From: Takakia lepidozioides
Lineage: Eukaryota > Plantae > Bryophyta
Length of the DNA: 64,000 nucleotides
Direction: 5' to 3'
NCBI GenBank assembly: GCA_030704615.1
Contig: CM060733.1
Location: 73,718,001-73,782,000, forward strand
The position numbers and the translations under genes were made by a program. Positions 1 through 59,877 of this stretch are shown piece by piece (the first letter of the stretch is position 1; every line of letters starts with the position of its first letter). The notes below the pieces were generated by a model that made no database searches, was not told where the DNA came from, and saw only the letters and a program-made list of their open reading frames with translations.

Positions 1-2110
1 TAAGCCAACAATAATCGTTGGCGAGAGATGCGAATTAGACCAAGTTGATGGAACTTCAAGCTGGTCTTGGCTTTGGATTCCATGCAAAGACGGCCACATC
101 ACAGCAGGCCGCCTGTCCATAAGCCATGAAGGTGCTGCGCAGTGCATCTGCTCTGAAATCGCCCCAATTCCTGGTTTGTAGTCTCTAGGTCTCGAGGAGG
201 CAGGCCCACGCGCAGAGAAAGCAAATCGTGATACCCCACCCAACTGAGGTCGAGTGTTGGAATTAACGAGCTCTTGGTGCCTGGAGAATCCTGGAGGGGA
301 ACGACCTCGGGAACTCGTAGATAACCTGGGAACAGGTTGTAATGGCAAAAGCGTTTTGGTGTTAAAAAAAAAAAAAACCTTTTTTTTTATCTAATTTAAA
401 TGTTTAAAGAGCCTGGTTGGTCATATCTTTGTCAAATGAGCTCCGTTTGACTCAGTTTTGAGGGGATATCTGCAGAAAGGGGAAATCTACCTATCTAGAC
501 CTGGTTCTGTTTTTGGGACTCTGCTAAAAATCTATGGAATTTTTAGAGTGTGAGTGTGCCATGAAAGATCCACAATCCTGTCTCTAGAACCTGTGCTGGT
601 CTATATGAGAGACAAATTGGTGGATGTACTCCTTGCATGGCTGGGGGAAATGAGGACGTAATTGAAGGGCAGGTCTCTTCTCTTAGTCTGTGCACACAAG
701 GGGACAGGATTTATGTTTCCCAAGGAACTCAGACTGATTTGAGTGGAGAACAGTTGGACGAGTTGATTGCATACTGGGAGTCAGGCATTAGCAGTAGACA
801 ACAGACTGCTGTAGTTGGCATTGAGGGCCTCAATATCGCCTTGGACAGTCAGAACTCTGTTGGAGCCAGCAGTTCTGCAGCTGTAGGTGAAATACCAAAG
901 TGGGTGAAAGCTAGGCTTGGAACACAGCCAAAGACAGCCCCGGGGACCAAGGTGTTCAGTCACAAGGCCGTGGTGTACTGGAGCAGAGGAGCAGGAGCTA
1001 CACAAGTTTGTGCAATCAGACATGATTGCAGCCGGATACGCTCTGCACAGGGCAACCACGAGCGGGGGGGTTCATCAGCAATGACATGTTTGTTGTGCGT
1101 GAAGGAGATGCAGTCATTCGCAATGAGGACACCCGCAACCGTCTCAAGCTTTCGAGTTGAGAGACTATCAAACCCTACCTTTGTTTTCTTTAGTGTTCAG
1201 TGAGCGGGAGATAGGGAGTATTGCTTTGTCTCTACCTGGCAGAAAGAGGAGGAGGGTTGGTTAGAGCGAGCTACTGTAGCTTGGGACAAGGTTAGTGGCA
1301 GGTTTCTGGACATAGATATACCTCCTACACCTTACCATCATGCAGAGCGAGGCACTTTGAGAGAAGTCTGGCAGTTGATAGCATAGATCAGGATTAGATC
1401 TTGCTTGGTCGGGCTTCTATTCTTCCCCTCCATCTCTGTACTATTTTCATTACCTTGTACTTGTAGTTGCCAAAGCCTCTCTTGGTGGAGGCCAGTCAGT
1501 CCGGGGTTTTGGGCTGGGTGCAGGATCAGCGTTGCTGCTGGATTTTGGTGTGGGGGTGTTGATGTTTTGATTTCTTGTGTTTGGATCCCCCCAACACCTG
1601 CATGCTTGACTGTGCGCCATGTTGGTTTTGTGTGGGCGCTTGCTTTCATAGGGATTAGGCCGGATTTGATCACCGGTCAATCCTAGAGTATGCTGTCGGT
1701 GGTGAGGCTGGAGTGATGACCAGCAAGACCACCAGTGTTTCTTCTATGGTGATGGTTGATGACCAGCCAACCATAGGAGTTCTTGCGGTGGATGCAGGTG
1801 CAGGTTCCCTGAGCCATTGGGATATGACCCTTAGACTGCAACAGGTGCCCACCCGTGTCACTATTAGATTAGTACTAGAGCCTTATAGTGTCACGTGGAG
1901 GAGGTGCACATTGTGAGTGTCATTACGGAGTTACCCAAGGGTTTTGAGGGAGTACGGCTACAAGCAGTGACAGTGAGAGTGGGGTCACAAGACGAGGTAT
2001 TCGGTTCAGACCACCTTCACCGCCACCCTCAACTACTGTAGCGTCAGACACAGACTCGGAGGCTTCATCAACAGGTGTGCACTTTCATTCGCCATTGTTG
2101 TGGGACGACA

Positions 2111-2208
2111 TGGAGGTGATGTATGGAGCTACCAAGGGGCCTCGTAGGTACTCTGGAGCTGTGGGCACAATCGAGTTGGATGACTTTATCCAGGAGTTCG
2201 ACAGCTGG
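2111..2208 (+). pseudogene. gag: Gag N-terminal fragment
   Basis: MEVMYGATKGPRRYSGAVGTIELDDFIQEFDSW resembles the start of a retrotransposon gag capsid (FsG...dfl..f); it ends abruptly at the DNMT junction. Confidence 0.5.
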
Positions 2209-3000
2209 AGTTCGTGGATATCAGCAGGCCTTGCCAGCAGACATTGCGTTGCTGGGGGCGCAGGATTTGGAGCGGGTTGGCTCCATTGATCTGGTAGTGG
2301 CAGGTTGGCCCTGCCAAGGGCATTCATCAGCCGGGCATGGCAATGGATTGCGAGACTCGAGGACGGGTCTGTTTTGGGAGATGGTGCGGATTTTGCGCCA
2401 CTTGCAGCTTCATCAGGCTGTATCTCCGGCATACATCTTGGAGAATGTGCCACTGATGGGTGATTCTCGGGCCAGGGTGATGGCCAGTGTGCATCAAGTC
2501 CGGTCGTGGCTTGGGTCAGCAGTGTTGCTAGATGCAGCTGCAGTGGGGTCACGGGCTCATCGTCCACGACTATGGTGGACTAACTTGATGCCACCCGCAC
2601 TGCTCAAGCGTGCATTTGATGGGGTGCAGCGGCCAGCACACCTCACCGTGGATGGCATTTTGGACACAGGAAGGCAGTCTCAACGTGTGAGACACGATGA
2701 CCGTTCGCCTTTGGCAGTGGTCAACAGGTGGGTCAACCACGAGCAGCATTACCTACACTGCTCAGCTTCCCAGGATCCCATGCTTTTCGGGATGGTGGAC
2801 CTGGCCTCCTGTGGGATGCTCAGTTGCAGCAGTTAGTGGAGCCTAATGCCGACGAGCGAGAGCGGGCTATGGGGTTTTCCACTGGGACCACGGCGGTGCC
2901 TTCTCTTTCTGAGGCATCACGTCGTCAGGTGTTGGGGCAAGCAATGGATCTCAATTGCTTGACCTGGATTGTCAGCTTGGCTATGGCTGAGCAACGTAGA
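2203..3000 (+). pseudogene. DNA (cytosine-5)-methyltransferase domain, lacking motif I, one frameshift
   Basis: Motif IV IDLVVAGWPCQGHS (PC at 2309-2314), motif VI YILENV (ENV 2441-2449), motif VIII AHRPRLWW (2558-2578); after the frameshift at ~2727, motif IX ERERAMGF and motif X LGQAMD (2932-2949). Confidence 0.92.
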
Positions 3001-3443
3001 GTGCGGAGTGCACTTCCCTTGACGGTCTCTCTGCCTACCGAGACGGTACAGGCAGCGAGTGGGGGCGAGCCGGTGAGGACCACGAGGTGTAGACATCCAT
3101 GGCACATGTGGGAGGTGCTCGAGGTTCAGAGGGAGTTGGCAGCGAAGGCAGCTGTGATGTGATGGATGAGGTTGGGGATTCTTCTCGGGATGAGGAGGTC
3201 CTCAATGATGAGATGATGGGGCAGGATGAGGCCTTGTCATTGACTGAGCAGGAAGGGGGTACTGCTCAAGAGGTTGCAGCATAGCAACCACGGGACGCGT
3301 CCTCTACCTCTAAGCCCACTGGACTTAAGGTTGCAGTTACGGAGGACAATTGGGAGCCTGATATTGGACCCATTGTCACCGGAGGAGAGAGACGACGTAT
3401 ACGGCGGTTCCTGAGGGCTTATAGGAATTGCTTTGCCTTCAGT

Positions 3444-4140
3444 TTGAAGGACTTGGGAGCACTGAAGGGTCAAGAGATCCGTATTGAGTTGGCCACTGAC
3501 ACGCCAATCTTTCGGAGACCCTATAGATACAGTGACATGGAGAGGTCTTTGATTCAGATGAGGACTCAAGATCTCTGGGAGGCAGGTTTGGTGGAGCTCT
3601 CTGGTGGAGAGTATGCTTCAGCCACAGTGATGCCAGCTAAGAAGGATGTCTATGGCAATTGGACGGAGAGACGTATGTGCGGTGATTACCGGCCTGTAAA
3701 TCGTCAGACCAAGTCCGATAGGTATGCCATGCCAACACCAGAGGAGATCTTTGATGCCATTGGGCATTCCAAGGTCTTTAGCACGTTGGATTTACGATCC
3801 GGATATCACCAGTTGCCGATCAAGGAGGCGGATAAGCAAAAGACGGCATTCTGGGGGATCAATGAGCACGGGAAGGATTGCCTATACCAGTGGCGGTTCT
3901 TACCATTTGGGCTTAAAAACGCTCCCGCTGAGTTTCAAAGAGTCATGGACAGGATTCTAGCAGGGGTGGAGTTTGCTCGGTGCTACATAGATGACATCAT
4001 CATCTTTAGTGCGGTGGAGGAGCATGAGAGACACCTTCAGGGGGTATTTGAGCGCTTGAGGACGCAAGGATTGAAGTTACATCCGGGCAAGTGCAAGTTT
4101 TTCCACAACCAGATTGAGTATCTGGGTCACATGATATCCT
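3444..4140 (+). CDS. pol: Reverse transcriptase (Ty3/gypsy)
   Basis: RMCGDYRPVN, FSTLDLRSGYHQ, LPFGLKNAP, CYIDD (YIDD 3984-3995), YLGH. Confidence 0.97.
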
Positions 4141-4146
4141 GGAGGA

Positions 4147-6267
4147 TTGGGGGTACAACAGACTAAGGTAGAGTCCATTGCACAGGTTCCACGCCCCACG
4201 GATGTGAGCCGAGTTCGAGCTTTCATGGGGTTAGCAAACTATTACAGACGGTTTGTTAAGGGATTTAGTGCCATTGCAAAGGCTCTAACCAAGCTGACCA
4301 AGGTGGACCAGGAGTGGCAGTGGGAAGATGAGCAAGAACAAGCTTTTCAAGAGCTCAAGGCGAGGTTGACCTCGGCGCCCATCTTGAGACGACCTATCAG
4401 GGGGCGTCCTTTTCAGCTGCATACAGATTGGAGCATGCTGGGGCTTGGAGCGGTGCTCACACAGGTGGATGATGAGGGAAGAGAGTTCGTAGTGGCTTAT
4501 GCTAGCCGCTCGAACAATGCTGCAGAGTCTAAGTATAGCTCATATGAGGGAGAATGCTTAGCTGCAGTGTGGGCCGTGGCACACTTCAGGTGCTATCTAT
4601 ACGGCAATCTCTTCACCCTTGTCACGGATCACCAACCACTCAAGTGGTTGATGGAGTCAGACAAGCTTACGGGGAAGCTTGCACGGTGGGCACTCATCCT
4701 TCAAGAGTATGACTTTCAGGTGGTGCATCGACCGGGTTTGGTCAATCGAAATGCAGATGGGTTGAGTCGCAATCCATGCACGAGCCAGCAGGATGACACT
4801 GGAGCTCGGTGGCATGGTGAGACGGACGAGGAGATGGTGCCCGGATGGCATGCATCTGCATTTCTGTGTATCTTGGCAGCGGAAGGCCAGGTTGGACCTA
4901 CAACAGGGATGACTGTAGATCAAGTGTCTGAGGACCCTGAGGCCAGCAATGAGCAGGTGGCGCCAAAGATATACATGAGGATTCAGTTGTTTGGACTACC
5001 TCCGCAGTGGAGACACGCAGCCACTATGACTGCCAAGGAGAGGGATCGGATCCTACAACGAGCCAAGAGGTTCAGGTGGGAGGGGACACACCTGCTTCGA
5101 GTGTGGGAGGATGGTCGAGTGAGGATTGTGCCTCACCCAACACAGCGGGCACGGTTAGTGCGGCATGCCCATGAGGAGTTGGGGCATTTTGGGGTGCGAC
5201 GCACTCATAGTCTACTGCAGGGGCAGTATTGGTGGCGTGGTATGCACACAGAGGTGCAACAATTTGTGGCTAGGTGCATGGTGTGTGACAGGGTGCGTGC
5301 TTCATTCAACGCCCCTACTCCACAATTGCACCCTCTTCCGATCATGGGATTGGGCTACAGGTGGAGTCTTGACTTCGCAGGGCCGTTGCCACTGACCATG
5401 CGCCACAACAAGTACGTGTTGGTGATGGTGGAGCACTTCTCCAAGTGGATTGAATTGGTTCCATTGCCTGATAAGGCTAGTGAGGGAGCTGCGTATGCAT
5501 TCCTGGATTGTGTGCTTAGCCGATTCGGTGCTCCAGCTGAGGTACTCACGGACCAAGGGAGAGAGTTCTTGGGGGAGTTTCAGGCTTTGTGTGACAAGGC
5601 CTTGATAGACCACCGCACCACTTCTCGGGATCATCCTGAAGCCGATGGCTTGGCAGAGAGAGTTGTTCAGACAGTAAGTAAAGAGGGTTTGCGCAAGTAT
5701 GGCTTGCAGAAGGGACACCTAGGGGATTGGGACCTTCAGTTACCCTGGTTAGCCATGGGCTACAGGTTCAGCAAGCAAGCATCACTTGCCTCCTTCTCAC
5801 CATACTTTCTTCTCTTTGGCCGAGAGCCGGATTTGCCTACATCCATTCGCAGAGAAGCTGCTACAGTTCTTAACCTTGACGATCCGGACGTGTGGGCACG
5901 TGCATGTGAGCAGCGTGCAGAGTTGTTCAAGAGAGTCATGCCCATGGCTTTCGAGAACCTTGCCATTGCACAACACCGTGATACGTTGAGGTATGCTACC
6001 ATACGTGGTGGGGGCTATCGTCCTGGGGTTCGGAGATTCAACCCTGGTGACTATGTCTATCTGCAGCAGACTGCTCCTACGACCCTGGATGTGACTGCAG
6101 GACGTGTTATTTTGAGGGTTCGAGAGGTCTTGCCCTCAGGCGTCTTGGTCTTGGAGGGTCGGGATGGCATAACTTGGAAGGACCATGTGCGTAATTGTGC
6201 GCCATGTCACCTTCGAATGTCGATGGCAGGATTGACCCAAACCTGGCAGTGGTATCTGCAGGTTTGA
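4147..6267 (+). CDS. pol: RT thumb - RNase H - integrase
   Basis: FMGLANYYRRFV; RNase H LHTDWS / EGECLA / TDHQPL / NADGLSR; integrase HEELGH...CMVC zinc finger and DDE core (WSLDF, TDQGREF, AERVV). Confidence 0.97.
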   Translation: MGVQQTKVESIAQVPRPTDVSRVRAFMGLANYYRRFVKGFSAIAKALTKLTKVDQEWQWEDEQEQAFQELKARLTSAPILRRPIRGRPFQLHTDWSMLGLGAVLTQVDDEGREFVVAYASRSNNAAESKYSSYEGECLAAVWAVAHFRCYLYGNLFTLVTDHQPLKWLMESDKLTGKLARWALILQEYDFQVVHRPGLVNRNADGLSRNPCTSQQDDTGARWHGETDEEMVPGWHASAFLCILAAEGQVGPTTGMTVDQVSEDPEASNEQVAPKIYMRIQLFGLPPQWRHAATMTAKERDRILQRAKRFRWEGTHLLRVWEDGRVRIVPHPTQRARLVRHAHEELGHFGVRRTHSLLQGQYWWRGMHTEVQQFVARCMVCDRVRASFNAPTPQLHPLPIMGLGYRWSLDFAGPLPLTMRHNKYVLVMVEHFSKWIELVPLPDKASEGAAYAFLDCVLSRFGAPAEVLTDQGREFLGEFQALCDKALIDHRTTSRDHPEADGLAERVVQTVSKEGLRKYGLQKGHLGDWDLQLPWLAMGYRFSKQASLASFSPYFLLFGREPDLPTSIRREAATVLNLDDPDVWARACEQRAELFKRVMPMAFENLAIAQHRDTLRYATIRGGGYRPGVRRFNPGDYVYLQQTAPTTLDVTAGRVILRVREVLPSGVLVLEGRDGITWKDHVRNCAPCHLRMSMAGLTQTWQWYLQV

Positions 6268-6400
6268 GGTGCATGTTGTGTGGGTCTGCTAAAGGGGCAG
6301 CCACCATGCTGTGGTGCGATCAATGCTCTAGAGGTTGGCATATGGGATGCTTGACTCCACCTCTTGAGATGGTTCCGGATGGGGATTGGTTATGTCCATT
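6268..6400 (+). CDS. PHD finger at the integrase C-terminus (1-nt frameshift near 6215)
   Basis: CMLC...MLWCDQCSRGWHMGCLTPPLEMVPDGDWLCP fits the C4HC3 PHD pattern; the last Cys is lost. Confidence 0.9.
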
Positions 6401-6669
6401 GCATTGGATAGTGGGAGTGGATACAACCATGGAAGGCTAACAAGAAACGCAAGGCCCAGCTACTAGGAGACCTTGAACACACGAGGTCCTGGCTCAAGTT
6501 CACAGATTGCAAGATGGCGACTAACGATGGGGCTACTCTTGTACCCGGCCTCTTGGTCTATAGAGTTTGAGTACAATAGGGACAGTGATAGAGGACTTAG
6601 TACGGCTGTGGCTATTACATCTTGTAGCTATCTGGAGGTAGAGGGACCTATCCACCAGCTAGGGGGGCG

Positions 6670-7203
6670 ATTGTGGCAGACTACTTTATTGTGCATATAT
6701 GTGTGGTGTGGTTTGGACAGCGATGTAGTTGTGTAGCGATATGTATGCGCACGACAGCTGTCAAGTTAAATAAGCACAGTGTGAAAACAGCTAGAATAAA
6801 ACTAGTTATTTGTAGTTAACACTTGGATTTAGGTCAAGTGTTAAATCAGGTGTCAAGTTTAGTTTGACACCTGGTCCGTCTTATCTTCACGAGAGCGGCA
6901 GTCGCGCGGCTCATCTTTCTCGAGTTGAGCCTGCGCGACCGAGCTCCTGTGTGCGTTTAGATCTGAGTTTACTCATGATGGGAGTGTAGGTTGTTGTGGG
7001 GTGGAGTCCCCATAGCTTGGGGTGCCCCTGGCTCGACTACTGTTTTAAAGAGTGATGGTTTTGGATTTCACATGTTTCTTGTGTGGAGAGCAGTGTCATT
7101 TGTTAGCTTTCTTATCATTGTGGCAGACTACTTTATTGTGCATATATGTGTGGTGTGGTTTGGACAGCGATGTAGTTGTGTAGCGATATGTATGCGCACG
7201 ACA
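6670..7203. repeat. 87-bp exact direct duplication (6670-6756 and 7117-7203)
   Basis: attgtggcagactacttt...atgcgcacgaca occurs twice. Confidence 0.9.
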
Positions 7204-7213
7204 CATTTTTAAA

Positions 7214-9355
7214 ATGTCGACGTGTGGGCCTGGGAGTGGAGTTGACTTGGTCACTCGCATGACAACTGGAAACTTGTCGAATGCTTGGGTGATGTTTGAC
7301 CACATCGAGCAAATTACAAACCATCAGTGGGTGACTATGGGTGCACATGTTTATGACTATCACTCCAAGAGGCTCATGACGATTGCAATCTGCGAGATGA
7401 AAGGGGAGGACACACAGTCGGAGATGCATCTGTGGGAGGGCATAAATGAGCAGATGGCAAGGGCGGGTTTGCCAGAGCCCAATTTCAGGGGATTCATGGC
7501 AGACAACGCTCAGGCCAACTGGGCAGCGGTGCGGCGTGTGTACGGTGAGGACCCCAATGTTCCAATGGAGGGGAAAGAGAGATCATGTGGATTCCATTGG
7601 ATGCAGAGTCTATCTCACTACACTACCAAAATTGTTGCTAGCTCATTCCAGGCTGAACACTGTGTCATTTGTACGGCGTGGAAGGATGCACCCACATTTG
7701 ATGACGCGGAGGTTAAGTTTGCTATCATTGAGGCTTGGTGGAACACGTCAGGTGCAGTGGAGACAACCAATCTGGGAGCCTTGCACAGCTGGTTGGGGTG
7801 GTGGCATTTCCGGTATCGACAGTTTGGATAGTACATGCGGGAGGTATGACGCTGCCATTTTTGTGCAATTGTCATTCTATTACGGACCTTTCCATTGGTC
7901 CCTCACCATTGTTTCTGTCCTTGTAGGAGCGGTGTTTGGATTCCGACACGGACATGCCGAACACGAATATGGCAGAATCAGTCCACTCCTCCTGGCAAGC
8001 TTCTTCTGCCGCACATCTGGTGGACGTAGTGACGGCCACAACGGAGGACATGGACCGAGCAATCATGCAGCAAGCCACGTACTACAAGTTCCTGAGCGGG
8101 AAACAATGGGGCTTTGGGCCGGACAGGGATGAATTGTTGGTACGAACAGCTTCGAGGTCCAAGAATCCACTGAAATGGGCGACAACATTGCGAGAGAAGA
8201 TCAAAAGGATGCCTCTGCACCGCAGAGATGAACACCTAGAGGGGGACGTTGGTACTCGCCCTGTGAGGCAGAGGATTGAAGAGGAACCCAGATGCAAAGA
8301 GGATTCTTGGAGATCCGACAGGACATTCGGACAACACCTCGAGGTCCCGTCATGTTGCCGCACAATGTGTCTTCCAGCAGTGGAAGCCCAAGAGTTTCCA
8401 GATCGCCATCACCTTCAAGCGGGGATTCCGTGCGAGAAATTCCCACCGCTCGCTTGCCCCAGATTCCGCCCGCTGTTATGCAGTATGGCCAAGCCATTAT
8501 AGAGACGACTGTGTTTGCGTCACAATGGAGAATTGCTCGCACAAAGCCGGCGTTTCGAGGCAGGTGTTCCGCAATTCGAGTGGATACACGGCAACGTTGT
8601 TTAGAGATGATAAGGAGGAATCCAGATGGGACTGTCCCTGCTCCTACTTTTACATGAAGATTTGTCCATGCAAAGTTTGTGGAGGCGATAACCACCCAGT
8701 TCTGGTTCTGCAGGCACAACATTATGACTTGCGTGTATGGAAAGCCCAAGTACGGCATACAAACAATGCTAGAGGCTCCCCGGTGTGGCCGGTGGAACCA
8801 GGTTGCGATCTGAGTTAGGTTGAGGCCGACGCCCTTACTGCCACAGGCTTTCGGATAGTGCAGCGCACTGACGTCCCCAGACAACCATTTCCGCTTCCAC
8901 AGCCTCCACCACCGACCCCTGTGAGAGCAAGAACAATGGGATGCGACAGCTCTAAGCATCCTACACACCGTTGGGGGAATCCGAATAGGCGGCGACCTCC
9001 CTCAAAAGTGAACGAGACAAGGATGGGGAATACACTTCGGATGAACTGTACAATCCAGAGCTCGACAGAAGTGCCCCCACCAGGCTTCGGGCGTGTGTAT
9101 CAGATGGCCACGGCAGGCTCAGCTATTCGCAATGAGGTGTATACCATCACCATTTCAGAATTACCCACCTGCAATTGCACCGACTTCCAGATCATGGCGA
9201 ACAAGGGGGCATCATACTGCCCTTGCAAGCATTTGTACTACGTGTACCTAAAGAGACTCCGGTGTAATTCCACAACTCATCACTTCATATATGCACCAGG
9301 GTTGAGCCCCCAAGAGGTGCATACTCTTCTGAATATGGATCCAGGGGACCAGTGA
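7214..9355 (+). pseudogene. Mutator/MULE transposase with C-terminal SWIM zinc finger (fragmented; probable intron ~7844-7926)
   Basis: MFDH (first D), FMADNAQA (second D), CGFHW (CxxH), TNMAESVH (catalytic E) and SWIM CNCTDF...CPCKHLYYV. Confidence 0.85.
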
Positions 9356-10244
9356 GCTTGGCTTGCGGTCCCCACACAATGGTACGCCCATCCTTTTCGG
9401 AGTTTCAGTTATAGTAGAATGTACTGCTGCAAGTACCTTTGAGTCTGGCCACAGAAAGGTCCGACTTATGTCTTGCCTACCAGTAACCTATTTTGCTCGA
9501 ACTAAGATAATACTATGTCATTCACTTCTGTTTCCACGTGCTTGTATTTTTGTTTGTTGGAGGGTTCCTGTTTTTCTGCTCTCCCAAACTTTGCTTTCCT
9601 CATTTGACCCCTGGCAAGGAAATGCGGTGCCGCATTTCCAAGTAACGTCGTAGGTATTGGTAGATGCGGCCTTTGTCATAGCAAGATAGTCGCACGCAGC
9701 CTTCAGGGAGCCGACTGTCGCCAACACCAAACCCCCCAGAAATTTCGCACGTGCGAACCCTAATGCGGCACCCCATTTCCCAATTGAGTCGCAAACCTTT
9801 CCCGCCGAATATCTGAAGATGACAGAAATGTGAAGTACTGCATACTCTATTGGTGCAGACTCTATTGGTTCAATCGCGGTAGAAGGGTCAGCTTCATTCC
9901 AATGTTAAGGCATGTAAAACCACGGAATACTCTATACATGCGAGTATGCGACGTCCTTTTGTCGTGGTATACTGGATTTCTCGTTGCTCGGTCACTCATT
10001 TCCATGAGCGGATCTAAAAAACCATGAGCGGAGTTGTTACTGACGACATATCTTCGCCGCATTACAGGATCTGCAACTTCCAAAAACGGCAAGGTCAAAT
10101 AAAAAACTAATATTTGTATACTTTTTTAATCTGTCGCATTTCCAAATTTGGAGGAGTCCGCTCATGAAATCCGTGTGTCTTAGACTTCGGCTCACCGCTC
10201 ATGTGGCTCATGCGGCTCATGGCTCATGGCTCATGGTTTCTGCT

Positions 10245-11394: not shown

Positions 11395-13100
11395 TGATTA
11401 GTCCTTCAGGTATTGACATTTTCTTTAGTGGGAAGGAAAGCGAGGATGTTGCAGATTGGCTTGATCGTCTGTAGATGGCGGGAGATGTAAGGGAGTATGC
11501 TGAAGACAAGATGGTGAAAGTGGCAAGGTTGAATCTCTTAGGCAAAGCAGATGCTTGGTATCGAAGACAGAACCCAAAGCCTGCGACATGGGATGAGTTT
11601 CAGGCAGCCATTGTGGAAACGTTTGGTCAGGTCGATCCAACCGAGCTGAAGATGAAGCTTGACTCAGTCAGACAGGAGCCAAGACAAAGGGTGCAGGCAT
11701 ACTTTGAACGGCTTGACAAGCTGTTCAAGCGAGGCACTATTGCAGATCTGGAGCAGAGGAGAAGGTTTATGGCAGGATTGCGACCAGAAATAATGCGACT
11801 GCTATTGGGAACCAGGTTTGCTAACATTGATGAAGCAGTAGAGAGAGCAGTAAAAGTGGAGAAAGGACTAGGGCAAATCGGAGAGACCCCTATGGAACCA
11901 ATGGAAGACGAAGAGGAAGCTGTTGACAGACCAATGTCTCAAATGGACAGACGCTTGGATGACCTCAATTTCACACTATGAAAGTATTTTGAGAAGGGAT
12001 CCACTCATTCTGAGGCCTCAGGGAGCCGTACCCCACCGCGTGGTATGACCACAGTGTGAAACAATTGTCAACAGGAAGGGCATGTAGCAGCATTCTGTCC
12101 ATCCGGGAGAACCCCTTTGAAATGTGGAAAATGCCACAAATTTGGGCACCGGACAGACCAGTGTGGTAAGCAATGCAACTTCTGCAAAATGTTGGGACAC
12201 ACGAAGGACCAATGCAGGGCAAAGGCAGCCATGAGATCAGGAGGAGTGCACGCCACCAACTTACTGGAGGTCATGTGTGATGATGAAGAGGCGGTCTTGG
12301 CTGAGCTAAATGAGATTATGGCAGGGAACACAGTCAATGAAGTTCGACTACCTAAGAAGAGGGTTCCTGTTCCATTACCAGTCCCCAAGTCCTACAGCAG
12401 ACAACAAAAAAGGAGAAGCAACAGAAGCTGCTGAGGAACATGCCAGACCACAACGGTTGGGCCATCCAAGTAAGATGCTACCAAGATGGTCTGAAACTAC
12501 AGCTGGAAGATCAAAAATACTTGATCACTTTTATAAGGGCCGTATCTCCATGTCACCAATGGATATGATCATGAGTATGCTAGAGGAGTTTGAGAAATTA
12601 AAGGGATTGGTCAAAGTGGTTGAGCGAGCCAAGGAGAGTAGCAGACAAACTAACTGGACTGCTGGAGCAAAACACACTGGTGTGCAACACGTTTCCAAAC
12701 AGCATGCAGTAGCCTATGCATACAATGGGAAGGTGAAGGCTCTTCACGCTATGGTAACCATAGGGGATTTCCAAGTGCTAGGACAGATCGACACAGGAGC
12801 TATGGTCTCTGTGATGGCAGCAAGCACAGCACGGGATTTGGGAATTATGAAGGAAGTATTAAATGACAAAGAGGTTGCTTACCGTGTGGCATCTGTTGAT
12901 TCGTCAACTTTCCCACCGTGACCTTGAGGTCCTCTAGCCTACCCATTGCTGTCTCCACTATCATTTATAGTGGTTGATACGGACAGCTACCACATGCTAC
13001 TAGGACTTGACTTCTTGAAGAAATTTGGGGCTGCAGTAGATACAGAGGCTGAAACACTGCGAATACGCTATGGACCTGGAACTGATGTGGCTTATTTTCC
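11395..13100 (+). pseudogene. gag: gag - aspartic protease, frameshifted
   Basis: Retrotrans-gag-like region, two CCHC knuckles, IDTGA and LLGLDFL protease motifs. Confidence 0.85.
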
Positions 13101-13646
13101 CTTGCACACAGTTGAGTTGGCTGACAACAAGATGCAGCAATTCCAGGAGCTGTGTGAGAACATATTGGTTGAGCCTGCAGAAGGGATATGGGACAGTAAG
13201 AATCAGATCTTTGCAGTATCGCAGGCTGAAGCTCCCAGGAACAATGTAATCCAAATTCCCAGTCATGATGAGTGGGAAGAGGAATCAGAAGAATGGGAGA
13301 CAGATTTGGAGACTGGATCACAATACATGGAGGAAGAACTAGGGCAGCACAACTATGATGAACTGATCAGGGTTGCGGACATAGAGGATCATGAGCTAGA
13401 GGACCAGGGTTTGGGAACATTGCTTGAACAAGAGGCACACCAAGGCATGACCAGGTTGATCCTAAGGGATGCCTATAACAAGGCATGGGAAAATGAACTC
13501 CAGGAAGAAAATGAAGGGGAAGACGATTTTCAGGACTGGTTGAGGGTCACTGCTCTTGAAGAAAAGGGAACGTTACCAGAGAGCCCATATACTCTGTCTC
13601 TGGGGAAATGGACAGGACAAGTAAGGAAGTGCCAAGTCGTTGGTAG

Positions 13647-14403
13647 ATGCTGAGAGCAAGGCTGAAGCTAAGCAACCAGTTGACAGAGATGCAAAGAGAA
13701 CAGATGTTGGCCATGCTGGAGCAGAACCAAGAGGCATTTGCCCTCAGCAAGGCAGATCTGGGTTTTTGCAAGGACGTGGAACATTACATAGACACTCAGG
13801 GCTTTCCACCATGCAGGAGTCGAGCAAACAGGCTGTCGGAGTGGGAAGAGAAGGAGGTGCAATCACAAATAGAAGCGTTAATCAAACAAGGAAAAATGAA
13901 ACCAAGTGCCTCGGAGTATAGTTCTCCAGTCACTTTGCCACCAAAGAAGGATGGGAGTAAGCGCTTTTGCGGTGACTACAGACCCCTAAATCAGCAAACC
14001 AGGAGAGACTCATACCCCATGCCACTGATTCGTGATGTCTTACAACAGCTGGGAAAGGCCAGCTGGTTTTCAGCACTAGATCTACAAAGTGGCTTTTGGC
14101 AGATGAGCGAGCAAGATATCAAGAAGACTGCCATAATTACCAGATCAGGTCTTTATGAGTGGCTGGTGATGCCTTTTGGGCTGAAAAATGCCACAGCAAC
14201 TTTTCAGCGAGCAATGAACACCATTTTAACTTAGGAAATTAAAGAATACGCGAAGGTGTTTGTGGATGACATAAATGTCCACAACACAGAATGGGAGTCT
14301 CACCTGAGGCATGTTGAAAGCATTCTACAGCGGTTGAATGAGAGCAATCTGAAGCTGAACCCTGAGAAGTGCGAATTTGGGAAACAAGAACTGGTGTTCC
14401 TCG
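13647..14403 (+). pseudogene. pol: Reverse transcriptase, 3' truncated
   Basis: RFCGDYRPLN, LDLQSGFWQ, MPFGLKNA, FVDD. Confidence 0.93.
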
Positions 14404-15094
14404 GAGGTTTACTATTTCATGAACGCATGAGCCCATGAGCCTATGAGCCTATGAGCTCATGAGCGGGCATCCGCGGAATTGGAATTTTCCTGCCTTTATT
14501 GACGGTGTTATGTCCTCTTACCTCGGTAATAGGGTCTGTTTCTCCTGGTCCAGGATGCGGAATGAGGTATTTCGGCGCCATTATTCCCAAGAGCAGTGTG
14601 CTAAAATGGTGTTTTGAAGACATCCACCGGGGTATTTCGGCACCGAAATTACCTCTTAAAATGTGATATAGTGCGGTATTTAATGGCGCAGAATGGGCTA
14701 TTTGGGCGCCGAAATACCCAAGTGGGATGTGCTGAAGTGCCTTGTGCTGAAGGCTTCCATCGCGATATTTTGGTACAGTAATTCATCCGTGGAATTTTTT
14801 AGGCCCATATAACGAAGGCGTGCATTGGGCTATTTCGGCGCCAAATTTCCCAATATGAATGTTAGAAACGGCAGGGTTTTCATGGCTTCAAGTTCTCGGC
14901 TCGATGTGTGTATAAATTACTTGTAGGGTTCTTCACTGAAGTTTGCGTCTCTTCTACTTTTATTATACATTTTGGTTGGCGGAAGAAATGTAGGGAATCG
15001 GACAAGCAGTCTGAACACAATGATTTTTCAAATCGTCAATATTTTCATTAAGTGTTTCAGAACTGTACAACAAAAGGATCCAAATGAGACTTTG

Positions 15095-17005: not shown

Positions 17006-18099
17006 AAGGAGAGGAAACGCATGAGAATGTCACTGCAGAAGGGCAAGGAGCGAGAGAGCGAAGCGGTGGAACATGCAACCACTATGCACGAGCAAATGTG
17101 TAAGCAGCCACGTCTCCCGAAGCGTTGCCACCGTCCACCACTTTCTGCCGTATGGGTGTGATGAAGAGATTGTGACCCCTGACACGTTCGCACGGATGAA
17201 GTCGACTGGAACACGACGCGTGCCAGTTCCAGCCACCAGTACAAGACAGTTTATCCGAATTGCGGCACCGAAATACCTTCCGTTCACCGGATACTGTTCC
17301 CGGAGCAGCCGACATTGAATGAAATATCCGCACATCATGAAACCCAACCGCCATGAAAATCCCCTGCCTATGACATTCAACAGTCAGGTCGGTACGTTTC
17401 ATCAGCGGACGGATGAATTTCGGCGCCGAAATTCATCCTATTCAAGTGCTTTCATACACAAACTTACAAATTTCGGCGCCGCAATTCATCGCTTCCCAAG
17501 TCCTCATTCGTCATGAGCAAACCTGTCGGTGGGATATCGGAGCCGGAATTAATTCCGGGACAGTGGAAACGGCTGCACTTGGGCACATTTCATCCATATT
17601 TCGGCGCCGAAATTCATCCAGAGCGAAGACTAAATCGGCACCATGCTATGCTTTGCCGCCATCATTGCCCCTGACGGATGCTGTCCATGCCTGTTGGACT
17701 TGCCATTTCTGGACATTTAACTATAATTTCGGCGCCGAAATTATACTTTATGTGCGGGCAACGTCCCGTGCGAAAAAGACCACTTAATGGATACTGTCGG
17801 TTTCAAATGAAAAAAACGGCTAAAATGCAATTAATTTTGACAGAAGGGGTTCTATATGCCGATTTCTCCATTAAATGCAGAATATTCCTGTTATCTTCGT
17901 CGGAACGGGGTATTTCCAACGATTTACGAAAAATTATATCATCCAGAAGCAAAAAGTAAGTGTCGGGTTTGGACGAATTTCGGCGCCGAAATTCATCCAT
18001 TTCAAAGAAAAATAAATATTGAAGGGAGGGCATTGGATGAATTTCGGCGCCGAAATCCGGCGCTCAAACCCTGAAAAGAATTTGGAGGGATGAAGTCGG

Positions 18100-18795
18100 T
18101 TGAATTTCGGCGCCGAAATTCATTGCTCGCGAAGAAAAAAAAAAATCGGGAGGACTTCAGATGAATTTCGGCGCCGAAATTCATTGCTCGCGAAGAGAAA
18201 GAAAAATTCGGGAGGACTTCGGATGAATTTCGGCGCCGAAATTCATTGCTGGCGAAGAAAAAATAAAATTCGGGAGGACTTCGGATGAATTTCGGCGCCG
18301 AAATTCATTGCTCGCGAAGAAAAAAGAAAATTAAAAGGGAGGACTTCGGATGAATTTCGGTGCCGAAATTCATTGCTCGCGAAGAAAAAAAAATTTCTGG
18401 AGGACTTCGGATGAATTTCGGCGCCGAAATTCATGGCTTGCGAAGAAAAAAAATTCGGGGGACTTCGGATGAATTTCGGCGCCGAAATTCATTGCTTGCG
18501 AAGAAAAAAAAAATTCGGGAGGACTTCGGATGAATTTCGGCGCCGAAATTCATTGCTTGAAAAAAATAAAAGGACTTCGGATGAATTTCGGCACCGAAAT
18601 TCATTGCTCGCGAAGAAAAAAAAAAATAGAAGGGAGTACTTCGGATGAATTTCGGCGCCGAAATTCATTGCTTGCGAAGAAAAATAAAATTCGGGAGGAC
18701 TTCGGATGAATTTCGGCGCCGAAATTCATTGCTCGCGAAGAAAAAAGAAAATTAGAAAGGGAGTACTTGGATGAGGTTCGGCGCCGAAGTTCATC
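18100..18795. repeat. ~60-bp tandem array (~12 units) built on the 24-bp palindrome ATGAATTTCGGCGCCGAAATTCAT plus an A-tract
   Basis: Unit ggaggacttcggATGAATTTCGGCGCCGAAATTCATtgctcgcgaagaaaaaaaaattcg read directly. Confidence 0.95.
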
Positions 18796-19599
18796 TGTCG
18801 CAAAGAAAAAAAAAAAAAAAAAAAAAAAAAACTTCAGATGCATTTCGGCACCGAAATCCATCCGCAGGGTAGCAGAATTAGGGTCGGAAAAGGAGATGAA
18901 GAATGAATTTCGGCGCTGAAATATATCCATTCTGCCGATTCAGGATTACTGTCATTCGGATGTCGGCACCGATATCCGGACACATGGTGAATCACGACTG
19001 TAATGAGGAACACATTCATCCGTATTTTGGCATCCAAATTCAACCCTCATGTGCAGAAACAATTTGATGAAGAAGATGTTCATCCGAATTTTGGCACCGA
19101 AATCCATCCGTTGGGTGCTTGGTCAGTTTTATGAGGTGAACAAATTACTATTTCTGTCGCCGGAATTCATCCCTGGCTTCCAAAGTTGTTACATGACAGA
19201 GATGTTCATCCAGATTTCGGTGCCAAAATTCATGGGAAGGCCTGATTTATTGTAGCCCAAGTGGTTGTACATTACAATTCAGACACCAAATATCCGATGT
19301 GAATTTGCTGTTGTCGTCCGTTTTTGTAACGTACGTTACACACCTTCATCTTTACGTGCACTGATCACCCATCTTGTTGGATACGGAATCCTCCAGAAAA
19401 TCATTTGTGTTATTAGGTAGGACACACTCTTCTCACTGCAGGACTTCGCTGCGGAGCATACCGAGAGGTCCCGTCTTCAACATGGACTCCCGTATTTGGG
19501 TAAACGTGTACTTCCATCCTGATTCTCTGAAAGCTAAAATACGTTCCACGAAATCCAATTCCCAGTCGTCATCCTCCTCCCACGAGAAGCTCTTCGCCC

Positions 19600-19990
19600 G
19601 CATACCGGTGGGTGACCCCGCAGCTTGGCCCACCCATCGGTGGGGGAAACTGAAAAGACGGCGGCCACCAACAAAGGCGAACGACACCAGGATAGCCAAC
19701 GCTCTTGCAATGCCCTGCATAGTGTAAGGTTGCAGGGATGTTCCTCACCCCGGGATGGGGCGCATATTTCAGTTGTCAACAGCCGGGTCTGCTGCGCGCA
19801 GTGTCGTGTATACAATCACGGTTTCACAGTACCCAACTTGCAACTGTGAGGACTTCCTTGTTATGGAATCGAAGAATGCAGCATACGTCCCCTACAAGCA
19901 CCTTTATTACATTTTTCTGAAGCACATGAGTTGCATATCCGCAGTGGACGTCTTCATCCATGCTCCAACACTGTTTTCAACGAGCTGCAC
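19600..19990 (+). pseudogene. SWIM zinc-finger C-terminal remnant of a MULE transposase
   Basis: HRWGKLKRRRPPTKAND...CNCEDF...PYKHLYY is homologous to 8960-9355; no DDE core. Confidence 0.85.
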
Positions 19991-35735: not shown

Positions 35736-37613
35736 GTCTTGCATGCTAGAGTAGACATGTTTCAACTCGCCGACACTTATGGCACATACATTTTCATTCA
35801 GAAATCAAGCAGCTTCCCTGTGCCATATGGGGAATATACATGCTTGGATAATCTTCTGTTAAGGTTTTTTGCAATTCACTGCCAGTATGCTGGGACGTGT
35901 CCTTTGTCGTATGGATTGCTGTTTGCACAAGGTGCAATATGCAAATGCTGGAATGTGCAGTAGGACCCTTCCCACTGGAACACAGAACTAGCAATCTTGT
36001 AAAGGCATCACATTTGCAGAACAGTAACAATGTATTTGTAGCAAATTGGAGTCTTCTCATAAAGGTGGACGAAAACGCCAGGATGGGCTGCGAAATCACT
36101 ACAAATTGAATGAAGAGCAGTAACAAGGAAGCATTATGCAGTACATAGACCATAAACGGCGCTGAAATAGGCCTCAATGCCCGTTAATCTCCACACAATG
36201 TATGCTTTACTCGGATCCATTTGTAGACAACCAAAATAAAAAAAACATGCGCATGCCATTCATGGCCAAAAACCACATTCTCATGTATTGCGGCACCGAA
36301 ATTCACATGTAGCCATGGCGATGCGGCACCACCAAGTGTATAATTCCTCACAAAAAAATAGGGTGCAAGAAGATGAATGTAATATAATTGCCACTTTCTC
36401 CTTCCCGAATGTGGAATGTCAAGCAGTCCGACAAGTGTCCTGCCGTAGGGCCTTGTGCAGCTCGTTGAAACTCAGTGTTGGAGCATGGATGAAGACGTCC
36501 ACTGCGGATATGCAACTCATGCGCTTCAGAAAAATGTAATAAAGGTGTTTGCAGGGGACATATGCTGCATTCTTCGATTCCATAACAAGGAAGTCCTCAC
36601 AGTTGCAAGCTGGGTACTGTGAAACCGTGATTGTATACACGACACTGCGCGCAGCAGACCCGGCTGTTGACAACTGAAATATGCGCCCCATCCTGGGGTG
36701 AGGAACATCCCTGCAACCTTGCACTATGCAGGGCATTGCAAGAGCGTTGGCCATCCTGGTGTCGTTCGCCTTTGTTGGTGGCCGTCGTCTTTTCAGTTTC
36801 CCCCACCGATGGGTGGGCCAAGCTGCGGGGTCACCCACCGGTATGCGGGGCGAAGAGCTTCTCGTGGGAGGAGGATGACGACTGGGAATTGGATTTCGTG
36901 GAACGTATTTTAGCTTTCAGAGAATCAGGATGGAAGTACACGTTTACCCAAACACGGGAGTCCATGTTGAAGACGGGACCTCTCGGTACGCTCCGCAGCG
37001 AAGTCCTGCAGTGAGAAGAGTGTGTCCTACCTAATAACACAAATGATTTTCTGGAGGATTCCGCATCCAACAGGATGGGTGATCGGTGCACGTAAAGATG
37101 AAGGTATGTAACGTACGTTACAAAAACGGACGACAACAGCAAGTTCACATCGGATATTTGGTGCCTGAATTGTAATGTACAACCACTTGGGCTACAATAA
37201 ATCAGGCCTTCCCATGAATTCCGGCACCGAAATCTGGATGAACATCTCTGTCATGTAACAACTTTGGAAGCCAGGGGATGAATTTCGGCGACAGAAATAG
37301 TAATTTGTTCACCTCATGAAACTAACCAAGCACCCAACGGATGGATTTCGATGCAGAAATTCGGATGAACATCTTCTTCATCAAATTGTTTCTGCACATG
37401 AGGGTTGAATTTGGATGCCAAAATACGGATGAATGTGTTCCTGATTACAGTCGTGATTCACCACGTGTCCGGATATCGGTGCTGACATCTGAATGACAGT
37501 AATCCTGAATCGGCAGAATGGATGTATTTCGGCCCCGAAATTCATTCTTCATCTCCTTTTCCGACCCTAATTCTGCTGCCCTGCGGATGGATTTCAGTGC
37601 CAAATTCATCTGA

Positions 37614-37646
<33 letters not shown>

Positions 37647-37654
37647 GCGACAGA

Positions 37655-38690
37655 TGAACTTCGGCGCCGAATCTCATCCAAGTACTCCCTTCTAATTTTC
37701 ATTTTTCTTCGCGAGCAATGAATTTCGGCGCCGAAATTCATCCAAAGTCCTCCCGAATTTTTTTTTTTCTTTGCGAGCAATGAATTTCGGCGCCGACATT
37801 CATCCGAAGTCCTCCCGAATTTTGTTTTTTCTTCGCGACCAATGAATTTCGGCGCCGAAATTCATCCGAAGTCCTCCCAAATTTATTATTTTTTCTTCGC
37901 GAGCAATGAATTTCGGCGCCGAAATTCATCCGAAGTCCTCCCGAATTTTATTTTTTCTTCGCGAGCTATGAATTTCGGCGCCGAAATTCATCCAAAGTCC
38001 TCCCGAATTTTATTTTATTTCTTCGCGACCAATGAATTTCGGCGCCGAAATTCATCCGAAGTCCTCCCGAATTTTATTTTATTTCTTCGCGACCAATGAA
38101 TTTCGGCGCCGACATTCATCCGAAGTCCTCCCGAATTATTTTTTTTCTTCGCGAGCAATGAATTTCGGCGCCGACATTCATCCGAAGTCCTCCCGAATTT
38201 ATTTTTTTTTCTTTGCGAGCAATGAATTTCGGCGCCGAAATTCATCCGAAGTCCTCCCGAATTTTTTTTTTTTCTTCGCGAGCAATGAATTTCGGCGCCG
38301 AAATTCATCCGAAGTCCTCCCCAATTTTTTTTTTTTCTTCGCGAGCAATGAATTTCGGCGCCGAAATTCATCCGAAGTCCTCCCGAATTTTTTTTTTCTT
38401 CGCGAGCACTGTATTTCGGCGCCGAAATTCATCCGAAGTCCTCCCGAATTTATTTTTTCTTCGCGAGCAATGAATTTCGGCGCCGAAATTCATCCGAAGT
38501 CCTCCCGAATTTTATTTTTTTTCTTCGCGAGCAATGAATTTCGGCGCCGAAATTCATCCGAAGTCCTCCCAAATTTTATTTTTTCTTCGCGAGCAATGAA
38601 TTTTGGCGCCGAAATTCAATCGACTCCATCCCTCCAAATTCTTTTCAGGGTTTGAGCGCCAGATTTCAGCGCCGAAATTCATCCAATGCC
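37655..38690. repeat. ~62-bp palindrome array (~15-17 units), inverted counterpart of 18100-18795
   Basis: Same unit in reverse orientation with more copies. Confidence 0.95.
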
Positions 38691-39358
38691 CTCCCTCTCC
38701 AATATTTATTTTTCTTTGAAATGGATGAATTTCGGCGCCGGAATTCATCCTTACTGTCCGCAATGAGTAACTCTAATATTACATTTTCTATGCGACGGAT
38801 GAATTTTGGCGCCGAAATTCGTCCAAACCCGACACTTACTATTTGCTTCTAGATGATATAATTTTCGGTAAATCGTTGGAAATACCCCGTTCCGACGAAG
38901 ATAACAGGAATATTCTGCATTTAATGGAGAAATCGGCATATTGAACCCCTTCTGTCAAAATTAATTGCATTTTAGCCGTTTTTTTTCCTTTGAAACCGAC
39001 AGTATCCATTAAGTGGTCTTTTTCGCACGGGACGTTGCCGCACATAAAGTATAATTTCGGCGCCGAAATTATAGTTAAATGTCCAGAAATGGCAAGTCCA
39101 ACAGGCATGGACAGCATCCGTCAGGGGCAATGATGGCGGCAAAGCATAGCATGGTGCCGATTTAGTCTTCGCTCTGGATGAATTTCGGCGCCGAAATATG
39201 GATGAAATGTGCCCAAGTGCAACCGTTTCCACTGTCCCGGAATTAATTCCGGCTCCGATATCCCACTGACAGGTTTGCTCATGACGAATGAGGACTTGGG
39301 AAGCGATGAATTGCGGCGCCGAAATTTGTAAGTTTGTGTACGAAAGCACTTGAATAGG

Positions 39359-39830
39359 AGCTGCTGACAGCTTTGTGGTCATACAGGACTTCATATAAAG
39401 TCACCACTAAGTATACACCATTCCAATTAGTTTATGGTATGGAAGCCTTACTTCCAGTGGAATTCCTGTTACCTACCATGAGAACGGAGTGGGGAAAGAG
39501 AATGGAATTGCAAGATTCCATTAAGGTCAGGAAACATGAATTATACCATGTGGAAGAAGTACGTGCTGATGCAGCTGATAATATGACCAGAATTCAGATG
39601 AAGAGAAAGGAACAGTTTGATGAAGGCAAGTTAAAGACTTTTAAGACGGGGGATTTGGTTCTATGGTTGCAGAAGAAGGGAAAGATTAAAGCTTCTAAGC
39701 TTAAATCACCATGGAAAGGACCTTATGTCATACAAAAGATGTATGATAACAACACCGCCATGTTACAAACCATTAACAAATAAATACTGGGAAGAGTCAA
39801 TGCCAATAAGTTAAAATGATACAGTGGTAT
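39359..39830 (+). pseudogene. pol: Integrase C-terminus with GPY/F motif (copy C)
   Basis: TPFQLVYG...KSPWKGPYVI...VNANKLK. Confidence 0.9.
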
Positions 39831-43600: not shown

Positions 43601-44374
43601 CATGGATTCATTTATACCAAGACCAAGGAGGTAGCAAGTATTGTCATGGGATGCGGGTTATACTACGCTGCTTGTTTTCTGGTACGTTATCACATTGAGC
43701 AGCACAAGATGCAAGCGCGCTTTCTGAGTTATTCCAGTGGGGATCATTGGATCTTACCTTCAGTGCCACCTCATATGTACCTATATGAGGCAAAAGTTAT
43801 GATGCAAAAGGATTCTCAAATTCGTTCATGGTTTCAAGCGGCCTGGAACATTTTGTCAACACAAAAATTTGGCATTAATGATATTTTCTATAAGGGACAT
43901 GTGGCATGGAAATACTTGCACGGTGCACAAGTAATTGGTACCCCACTCACCTGGAGTGACAAGGAGCTCAGTGTCTTCACCAATTTTGCTGTTCAGCGTT
44001 TACAGCAAGTTGTAAAATATAAACTTCCAGACATGGTAGGACAACATTGTATGCCCCAGAGAATTCCACAAAAAGATCGACAATTAAAACACCTGAGAGG
44101 CGATGAGGATTCTGATACAACTGTTTCTTCAGCGGATTCTTTTGACATGGGAGAAGACTATGCAATTCAGATGGCAGAGAAGAAGCGACGGGGGTCTCCT
44201 ATGCCTGAAAGGTTACCTCGATATCAGCCTCCAGAGGGCCTCACTTATCCTGGTAGTGTTCAAACATCTCCGTCAACCAGTGACAGACCTCGGGCTCGTA
44301 CACACAGTCCGCCACGAAACTCTCAACGTAAGAAAGGTGCTCACTCACAAAGGTTTGCTAATCGCAATCAGTAA
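40612..44374 (+). CDS. Extra ORF3 (~1250 aa consensus): plant-mobile-domain-like N-terminus, acidic linker, long coiled coil, aromatic C-terminal domain
   Basis: 1092-aa open stretch 41096-44374; the upstream part is restored by comparison with the other copies (TGA at 40699, 5-nt deletion at ~41095). Confidence 0.8.
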
Positions 44375-59764: not shown

Positions 59765-59877
59765 AGTTTCAAGTTATAGCATTTATGGCCTGTCCTGTCG
59801 AGACGCCCGTTACTCAGAACGACGCCGCCTCTTGCGCTCAATTTCCCTCCATTTTCTTGATCCTTTCTCTGGTTTTC

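Follow-up and report, generated by a model that had tools for sequence, protein, structure and literature searches.

A dead Ty3/gypsy copy in Takakia lepidozioides from a family whose gag-protease frame ends in a DNMT3-like methyltransferase, with relatives in liverworts and Sphagnum

Why would a transposon carry its own silencing enzyme? This question, raised in 2018, is hard to test in dinoflagellates or in Klebsormidium, and it is posed again by a locus of the moss Takakia lepidozioides. The window, i.e. the whole 64,000-nt stretch of contig CM060733.1 that was analysed, contains a dead copy of a high-copy Ty3/gypsy retrotransposon family in which the gag-protease frame ends in a DNMT3-like C5 cytosine DNA methyltransferase (DNMT). 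The initial annotation had recognised a Ty3/gypsy element with its own DNMT and with a reverse transcriptase (RT) on the same strand, and this was borne out: matches to RVT_1, RT_RNaseH, Integrase_H2C2, rve and PHD follow the DNMT. The extent of 2203..6440 given for it was too short, as the element runs from approx. 460 to 7203, and the PHD finger, the in-frame stop at 3282-3284 and the B-A-B repeat end had not been noticed. The element is composed as follows (ORF, open reading frame; LTR, long terminal repeat).

460..2109, + strand: 5′ untranslated region and decayed start of ORF1, from the step in X1 contig depth; boundary approximate
2110..2208, + strand: gag N-terminal remnant, 85% identity to residues 1-34 of Marchantia P0010
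2205..2208, + strand: junction of a deletion of approx. 2.7 kb that took the remaining gag, the protease and the region of DNMT motif I; 4 letters common to both sides
2209..3000, + strand: DNMT3-like C5 cytosine methyltransferase, motifs IV-X; PF00145; frameshift near 2725
3282..3290, + strand: in-frame TAG (stop codon 3282-3284) then CAACCA, conserved ORF1 end, predicted readthrough signal
3351..4136, + strand: RT, YIDD at 3984; RVT_1 E=1e-30; frameshift near 4135
4321..4710, + strand: RNase H; PF17917, PF17919 (RT_RNaseH)
5137..6213, + strand: DDE integrase (zinc-binding, core and C-terminal part); PF17921 (Integrase_H2C2), PF00665 (rve)
6270..6398, + strand: PHD finger, ORF2 end; PF00628 E=7.4e-11; frameshifted from integrase near 6213
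6657..6670, + strand: polypurine tract, seen in the sequence; precedes repeat B in relatives too
6672..6756, + strand: first of two repeat B copies, opening the canonical LTR; agrees with 7117-7203 at 87 of 87 letters
6753..6762, no strand: palindromic B/A junction GACA-GC-TGTC, where integrated relatives begin and end
6759..7117, + strand: repeat A, which completes the LTR and ends in CA; assigned from its place between the two B copies, as in loci L046, L075 and L080
7119..7203, + strand: repeat B, second copy; right end of the element

The summed depth of contigs in run X1 was approx. 30 over positions 1-230 and more than 8,000 from 461 onward, with values of approx. 9,000-45,000 across 1200-7300 compared to approx. 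30 in the flank. This depth, which is not a copy number, shows that the family of the window element is very abundant. Repeat A had no match within 1-2200, thus the window is without this repeat at the 5′ end of the element. The gag remnant that had been proposed upstream of the DNMT was real: 2110-2211 matched residues 1-34 of the full-length Marchantia protein (85%), and from 2204 the match resumed at residue 938, from which we concluded that approx. 900 codons were lost. The motifs that flank this deletion stand 2,730 nt apart in locus L013. Contigs of X1, X6 and X7 diverged from the window at 2208 and ran on as gag, those of X9 and X10 diverged at 2205 and ran on as upstream DNMT, and the joint therefore has an overlap of 4 letters. 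The copy is indeed dead, as had been stated; the deletion removed most of gag, the protease and motif I, several frameshifts followed, and the 5′ repeat is missing. At least 11 short indels separated the window copy (1200-7300) from other copies in the runs, many given the few substitutions, and some of them may be assembly errors instead of decay. No Rfam match was detected in 1-9500 of the window.

The DNMT domain of the window is intronless, its motif order is not rearranged and its key residues are kept. Motifs IV (GWPCQ), VI (ENV) and VIII (HRPRLWW) start at 2303, 2441 and 2558 in frame 2, and motifs IX and X start at 2854 and 2932 in frame 1, past the frameshift near 2725, all as originally reported. 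The proposed check against PF00145 gave a match above the Pfam cut-off (E=1.5e-13). When PDB profiles were ranked, DNMT3A scored highest (68.8 bits), followed by DRM (41.9), DNMT2 (33.6) and M.HhaI (31.8). For the intact relative P0002 the predicted structure had a pLDDT of 89.9 and DNMT3A as the best Foldseek match; this model was built on 38 sequences, and an earlier fold from 13 sequences (pLDDT 46) was discarded. Ranked by profile and fold only, the enzyme appears to be of the Dnmt3 type. Among 40 loci with a single-frame DNMT, motif I was DLFGG in 38, motif VI was ENV in all 40 and motif IV was exactly GWPCQ in 21; stops were present in 37 of them, as expected for decayed copies. The dN/dS of the DNMT was 0.08-0.16 between families, with synonymous sites near saturation, and 0.49-0.65 among decayed copies inside one family. 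Judged from these ratios, purifying selection on the DNMT was shown. The best solved-structure matches of the window RT include Ty3 Gag-Pol, and those of the PHD finger were the fingers of CHD4, PHF12, DPF3 and KDM5B. Fingers of this type mostly read unmethylated H3K4, like the ADD domain of animal DNMT3.

The linkage was also scored in metagenome loci, the best 80 of 146 confirmed ones; they are redundant and almost all of one family, and the window row was excluded. RT was located downstream of the DNMT in 56 of the 61 loci with room for it, and the protease upstream in 59 of 64. In addition, a single 5,009-nt contig of another organism, B, spans window positions 2205-6676 with 206 differences. 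That a host DNMT and a retrotransposon were brought together by chance or by misassembly, as the fragmented and indel-rich window copy might have suggested, can be dismissed, because the same order recurs in these loci, in an independent run and in annotated genomes. The domain order of the family is gag-zinc knuckle-protease-DNMT-stop-RT-RNase H-integrase-PHD. This is the Ty3/gypsy order of gag, protease, RT, RNase H and integrase with a Ty3-type RT, where the protease is known from the relatives and is deleted in the window. The main metagenome family has an ORF1 end identical to a protein named for Sphagnum and is here called the Sphagnum-type family.

Named relatives were found in Marchantia polymorpha, Calypogeia fissa, Riccia sorocarpa, three Sphagnum species, Closterium, Klebsormidium nitens and Haematococcus, and no vascular plant was among the named relatives listed. 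The window grouped with liverwort and Sphagnum sequences both in a quick RT tree (10 rows, support 93) and in the DNMT tree (14 rows, support 99), in agreement with the land-plant-like lineage that had been supposed. The DNMT tree was made with FastTree from 174 of 245 near-complete domains after removal of near-duplicates, with element domains as its rows and without host or bacterial outgroups. Within it, a clade of 108 of the 174 rows (support 99) places the DNMT between RNase H and integrase, with the PHD behind; proteins of this layout include P0040, P0058, P0066, P0181 and P0266. Among these P0266 of Haematococcus lacustris, not a row of the tree, is the sole named relative, and chlorophytes appear to hold this second architecture. 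No relatives were found on viral contigs, nor on prokaryote genome contigs with one query. Public databases list the family members P0445, P0524 and P0241 as cyanobacterial or otherwise bacterial; they are probably eukaryotic contigs in metagenome bins.

The initial annotation had looked for the DNMT in one ORF with both protease and RT. In the closest relatives this was not the case: the DNMT shares an ORF with gag and protease and is separated from RT by a conserved stop. An in-frame stop stood at one fixed place in 57 of 58 linkers (TAG in 39, TAA in 18, TAC in the remaining one), followed by CAACCC in 51 and by CAACCA in two, the window and L037. Among distinct 282-nt linkers the conserved stop was present in 36/36 and the next commonest stop in 5/36. 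The stop was kept in the window, in L037 and in the Sphagnum-type family despite linkers that differ in length and sequence. It was in frame with both ORFs in 42 of the 58 linkers, the rest being off by 1-4 nt or decayed, and in the window the first in-frame Met lies 85 codons downstream of it. Of 147 redundant proteins reaching motif X, 75 end at least 30 residues later, 27 run on as far as RT, 31 carry the DNMT within Pol and the other 14 are fragmentary; those ending at the stop include a clade of 27 rows in the DNMT tree (support 98). Uninterrupted ORF1 (approx. 1,320 aa) and ORF2 (approx. 1,040 aa) proteins were found on contigs of equal size. Five annotated DNMT-RT fused proteins were rejected as evidence for a single ORF, as each gene model skips a different part of the linker.

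The window stop context matches UAG-CARYYA, the plant readthrough consensus of the tobacco mosaic virus (TMV) type (PMC2754532). With moderate strength we infer that the conserved stop is leaky and that readthrough keeps the DNMT at Gag level. No report of readthrough in this DNMT-bearing gypsy family was found in the literature searched. In the Klebsormidium element and its kin (P0370, P0298) ORF1 proteins end 12-15 residues past DNMT motif X, a break point that is likewise conserved but differs from that of the bryophytes.

After the polypurine tract the window element ends in B, GC, A and B. The complete A-internal-B-A-B form, in which A also forms the 5′ end, was observed in L046, L075 and L080, and a second form, A-internal-B, occurred among the relatives. 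Two complete direct LTRs at the ends were thus not found; in both forms the LTR is permuted. Integrated relatives start with TGTCA and end with (T/C)GACA, and exact 4-bp target duplications flanked 3/3 A-internal-B-A-B copies and 4/6 A-internal-B copies, i.e. 7 of 9 testable relatives. The DDE integrase (rve) together with such duplications, scored in the relatives, is typical for Ty3/gypsy and sets the element apart from DIRS, PAT and Ngaro; a tyrosine recombinase was not detected in the proteins scanned. At 13282-13570 of L059, nested near a longer copy, a short one has lost its interior and consists of the end of A, the primer site and B.

The 11 letters that follow the 5′ A are complementary to a spot approx. 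165 nt into A, which lies approx. 31 nt behind a TATA-like box. In a redundant set of 27 5′ copies, 16 had no more than 2 mismatches to this spot, and the match was perfect in 5. The L080 segment folds with the primer site paired to its complement in A. The partner was not found in the window because the 5′ end of this copy is missing. These data fit, with moderate strength, a self-primed reverse transcription in the relatives. Read from the polypurine tract to the primer site, B-A makes up a normal LTR; the integrated element would therefore be a circular permutation opened at the internal palindrome GACA-GC-TGTC. The A/B joint differed among the 4 copies seen, one of them with filler and a tract remnant, and the B/A joint is the fixed palindrome. 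Junctions of end-joined circles are variable. Moderately strong evidence of this kind suggests integration from circles opened at the LTR palindrome. Foamy virus integrase cleaves a palindrome at 2-LTR circle junctions (PMC1180852); there the cleaved palindrome is the junction itself, whereas here it lies inside the LTR. The literature searched contained no report of these permuted ends with a DDE integrase.

We consider it rather probable that the particle takes up the DNMT and that new DNA of the element is methylated by it, in a cycle that includes readthrough, self-priming and circle opening. Ribosomes would read through the UAG at a low rate, and therefore protease and DNMT would be made at Gag level, with RT-integrase as a minority product, before the protease releases them. 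Reverse transcription would be primed by the element RNA itself, a mechanism that has been proposed for Tf1/Sushi and Tcn1. The cDNA with B-A LTRs would circularise and the integrase would open the circle at the palindrome inside the LTR, giving A-internal-B-A-B. On this cDNA the DNMT would methylate cytosines, probably CG, so that the new copy arrives pre-marked, and the PHD finger, as a reader of histone H3 tails, would direct where the element integrates. The likeliest purpose of the enzyme would be to methylate the DNA of the element itself. That an ancient green-plant Ty3 clade, from chlorophytes to bryophytes, carries an active DNMT3 at Gag level in its particles via a leaky stop, primes itself and integrates methylated circles opened at the LTR palindrome seems doubtful to us. 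If the full cycle were true, it would be a replication cycle undescribed for LTR retrotransposons and possibly an unrecognised source of de novo methylation in bryophyte genomes, including the model Marchantia.

Several observations count against this explanation, and they bear on what the DNMT acts upon as well as on how ORF2 and the ends arise. The observed/expected CpG ratio of the window element was 0.54, compared to 0.28 and 0.34 in two other gypsy coding regions of the window; as it was not lower, the composition gave no sign of self-methylation and this test was negative. When expressed in yeast, the DNMT of KnitGypsy, the Klebsormidium element, gave no methylation, a result that the authors term inconclusive (PMC5890265). 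Both results would suit a fold and motifs that are kept for RNA methylation or non-catalytic binding. We regard such a role as quite improbable, since the cofactor-binding, Pro-Cys, Glu-Asn-Val and Arg-x-Arg motifs are kept clade-wide, the DNMT3A profile outranks that of DNMT2 (68.8 against 33.6 bits) and Symbiodinium Dnmt3 domains methylated CG (PMC5890265). An active DNMT might otherwise mainly target host chromatin or the insertion site, or damp the element's own activity, and not act on particle cDNA. Synthesis at Gag level would presumably far exceed the enzyme need of a 9-kb cDNA, the PHD finger suggests chromatin contact, and self-limiting roles are among the ideas in PMC5890265. Established retroelement biology has it that fusion to Gag and protease puts the DNMT in the particle, and these alternatives are in our judgement unlikely.

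Readthrough is weakened by the exact CARYYA match in only 2 of 58 linkers, and an in-frame stop such as that of Tca2 need not be bypassed via its local context (PMC2194720). The Sphagnum-type family has CAACCC directly after the stop and an ATG three codons on, so that ORF2 could be reinitiated there; separately called ORF2 proteins often start with a Met just upstream of RT, and gene models splice around the stop. ORF2 might thus arise from reinitiation, splicing or an internal promoter, with the rest of the model unchanged. The window and L037 are without such an ATG, the stop is in frame with both ORFs in 42 of the 58 linkers, and each spliced gene model uses a different junction, so that we hold this route to be possible but the less probable one. 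Moreover, in relatives further away one ORF holds both DNMT and RT, or the DNMT sits between RNase H and integrase, therefore Gag-level amounts of DNMT are not needed across the clade. At DNA level, a single family, L037 and the window supply the evidence on the stop and on the ends. Regarding the ends, a symmetric circle model predicts A-B-A 5′ ends too, and none was seen (0/23) compared to B-A 3′ ends in 5/20 (Fisher p=0.016; L005 and L080 treated as separate, their flanks differing). The A-internal-B-A-B form could instead come from DIRS/PAT-like copying, and the short A-internal-B form later from recombination between the B copies, no integrase-opened circle being involved. Such an origin would agree with the absent A-B-A ends, with target duplications kept in both end forms and with B copies only approx. 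340 nt apart. Against it stand the reading of B-A as a single canonical LTR from polypurine tract to primer site, the A/B joint that varies in 4 copies as in end-joined circles beside a fixed B/A palindrome, and the lack of a tyrosine recombinase in the proteins scanned; we consider it possible, but less probable than circle opening by the integrase.

For our preferred explanation, in which the packaged DNMT marks new element DNA, Marchantia polymorpha offers relatives with uninterrupted gag-protease-DNMT frames as well as methylation mutants, and the question of 2018 therefore becomes testable. The predicted readthrough and the circle opening are two separate testable mechanisms. Many proteins of Marchantia, Calypogeia and Sphagnum that are annotated as DNA methyltransferases are transposon proteins, and elements with A-internal-B ends would escape programs that seek paired LTRs. 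A 2019 opinion paper stated that land plants such as tracheophytes lack these elements (PMC6338049); bryophytes do carry DNMT-bearing gypsy elements. We found no report of DNMT-bearing retrotransposons in bryophytes or land plants in literature from which subscription papers, Repbase reports and theses were largely out of reach. The accessible parts of PMC11982613, PMC6453930, bioRxiv 363937, PMC10952607, PMC8557442 and bioRxiv 2022.05.23.493040 held nothing further on such elements.

The remainder of the window is repetitive as well. Downstream of the element, the decayed ORFs of 7204-9355, with a SWIM-like zinc finger (E=0.018) at their end, probably belong to a Mutator-like transposon that received the DNMT element as an insertion; the window has stretches resembling them near 19629-19900 and 36589-36817. 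At 11475-14417 lies another decayed gypsy element, unrelated to the first, with gag, a protease-like motif and RT and without a DNMT match. Long inverted arms, 97-99% alike, were found at 17436-19973 and 36473-39359, each bearing an array of approx. 62-nt repeats built on the palindrome GAATTTCGGCGCCGAAATTC; the arms may be both termini of one large foldback element, or may result from a duplication in the assembly. Between 20988 and 59800, another LTR family is present as several nested copies that run in both orientations; its long repeats contain 10-nt subrepeats, and it has a long extra antisense ORF (41054-44374, 1,106 aa). A tandem array of approx. 116-nt units, at least 28 copies, follows at 59745-63900.

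Elements resembling the present one in part are known from several groups. EpiLTRs/DAM-LTRs (bioRxiv 10.64898/2026.05.21.726589) are likewise Ty3/gypsy elements with a methyltransferase and a histone reader, but their DNMT is sister to DNMT4 and is accompanied by an adenine methylase and a chromodomain. That preprint separates them from 'streptophytes (Gypsy-DNMT3)'; bryophytes are not named in the text searched, and given this term its supplements may already cover them. SymbioDIRS-Dnmt3 and SymbioLINE-Dnmt also encode a C5 DNMT, and SymbioDIRS-Dnmt3 shares the Dnmt3 type and the A-coding-B-A-B repeats, its DNMT having methylated CG in yeast (PMC5890265). They differ in having a tyrosine recombinase or a LINE endonuclease and not a DDE integrase, and were reported as independent captures (PMC5890265). 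Gypsy-7a_cRei of Chlamydomonas, compared by description only, is a green-lineage gypsy with a PHD finger in its polyprotein, but has no DNMT listed and LTRs at both ends (PMC9940879). The self-priming Tcn1 and Tf1/Sushi chromoviruses likewise have a primer site that is not tRNA-based, and occur in mosses (PMC6317226). They have a chromodomain and ordinary LTRs, whereas the present family has a PHD finger and a permuted LTR; the chromodomain after the integrase that marks chromoviruses such as Tcn1 and Chlamyvir is replaced by the PHD. Neither methyltransferase nor PHD is mentioned in the accessible text of PMC6317226.

Closest of all is KnitGypsy-Dnmt3 of Klebsormidium nitens, described by de Mendoza et al. 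2018 (PMC5890265). Two K. nitens proteins, GAQ93235.1 (zinc knuckle-protease-DNMT) and GAQ93234.1 (RT-RNase H-integrase), have adjacent locus tags on one 7,497-nt scaffold, and from their domains, not from a name, the pair is probably a KnitGypsy copy. For the DNMT of GAQ93235.1, identity was 37% with P0002 and 40% with the part left in the window; the RT of GAQ93234.1 shared 45% identity with the window RT. Features in common with the published description are the Ty3/gypsy domains, an intronless and unrearranged Dnmt3-type DNMT with intact motifs under purifying selection, and the A-coding-B-A-B repeats, complete in L046, L075 and L080 and present as the B-A-B end in the window (PMC5890265). 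PMC5890265 places the DNMT in the Pol ORF, whereas here DNMT and RT are in frame but split by the conserved stop, so that gag-protease ends with the DNMT; two separate gene models also make up the K. nitens pair, and other algal relatives are fused. In its accessible text we saw no mention of a PHD finger, self-priming, target duplications or A-internal-B forms for KnitGypsy. The host range differs too, the present relatives occurring in liverworts and Sphagnum, and the same text is without mention of Marchantia or liverworts. Since DNMT and RT are each homologous to the K. nitens pair and the repeat plan is shared, we placed the element in the KnitGypsy-Dnmt3 lineage, and the extension of this Gypsy-DNMT3 lineage to bryophytes is solid.

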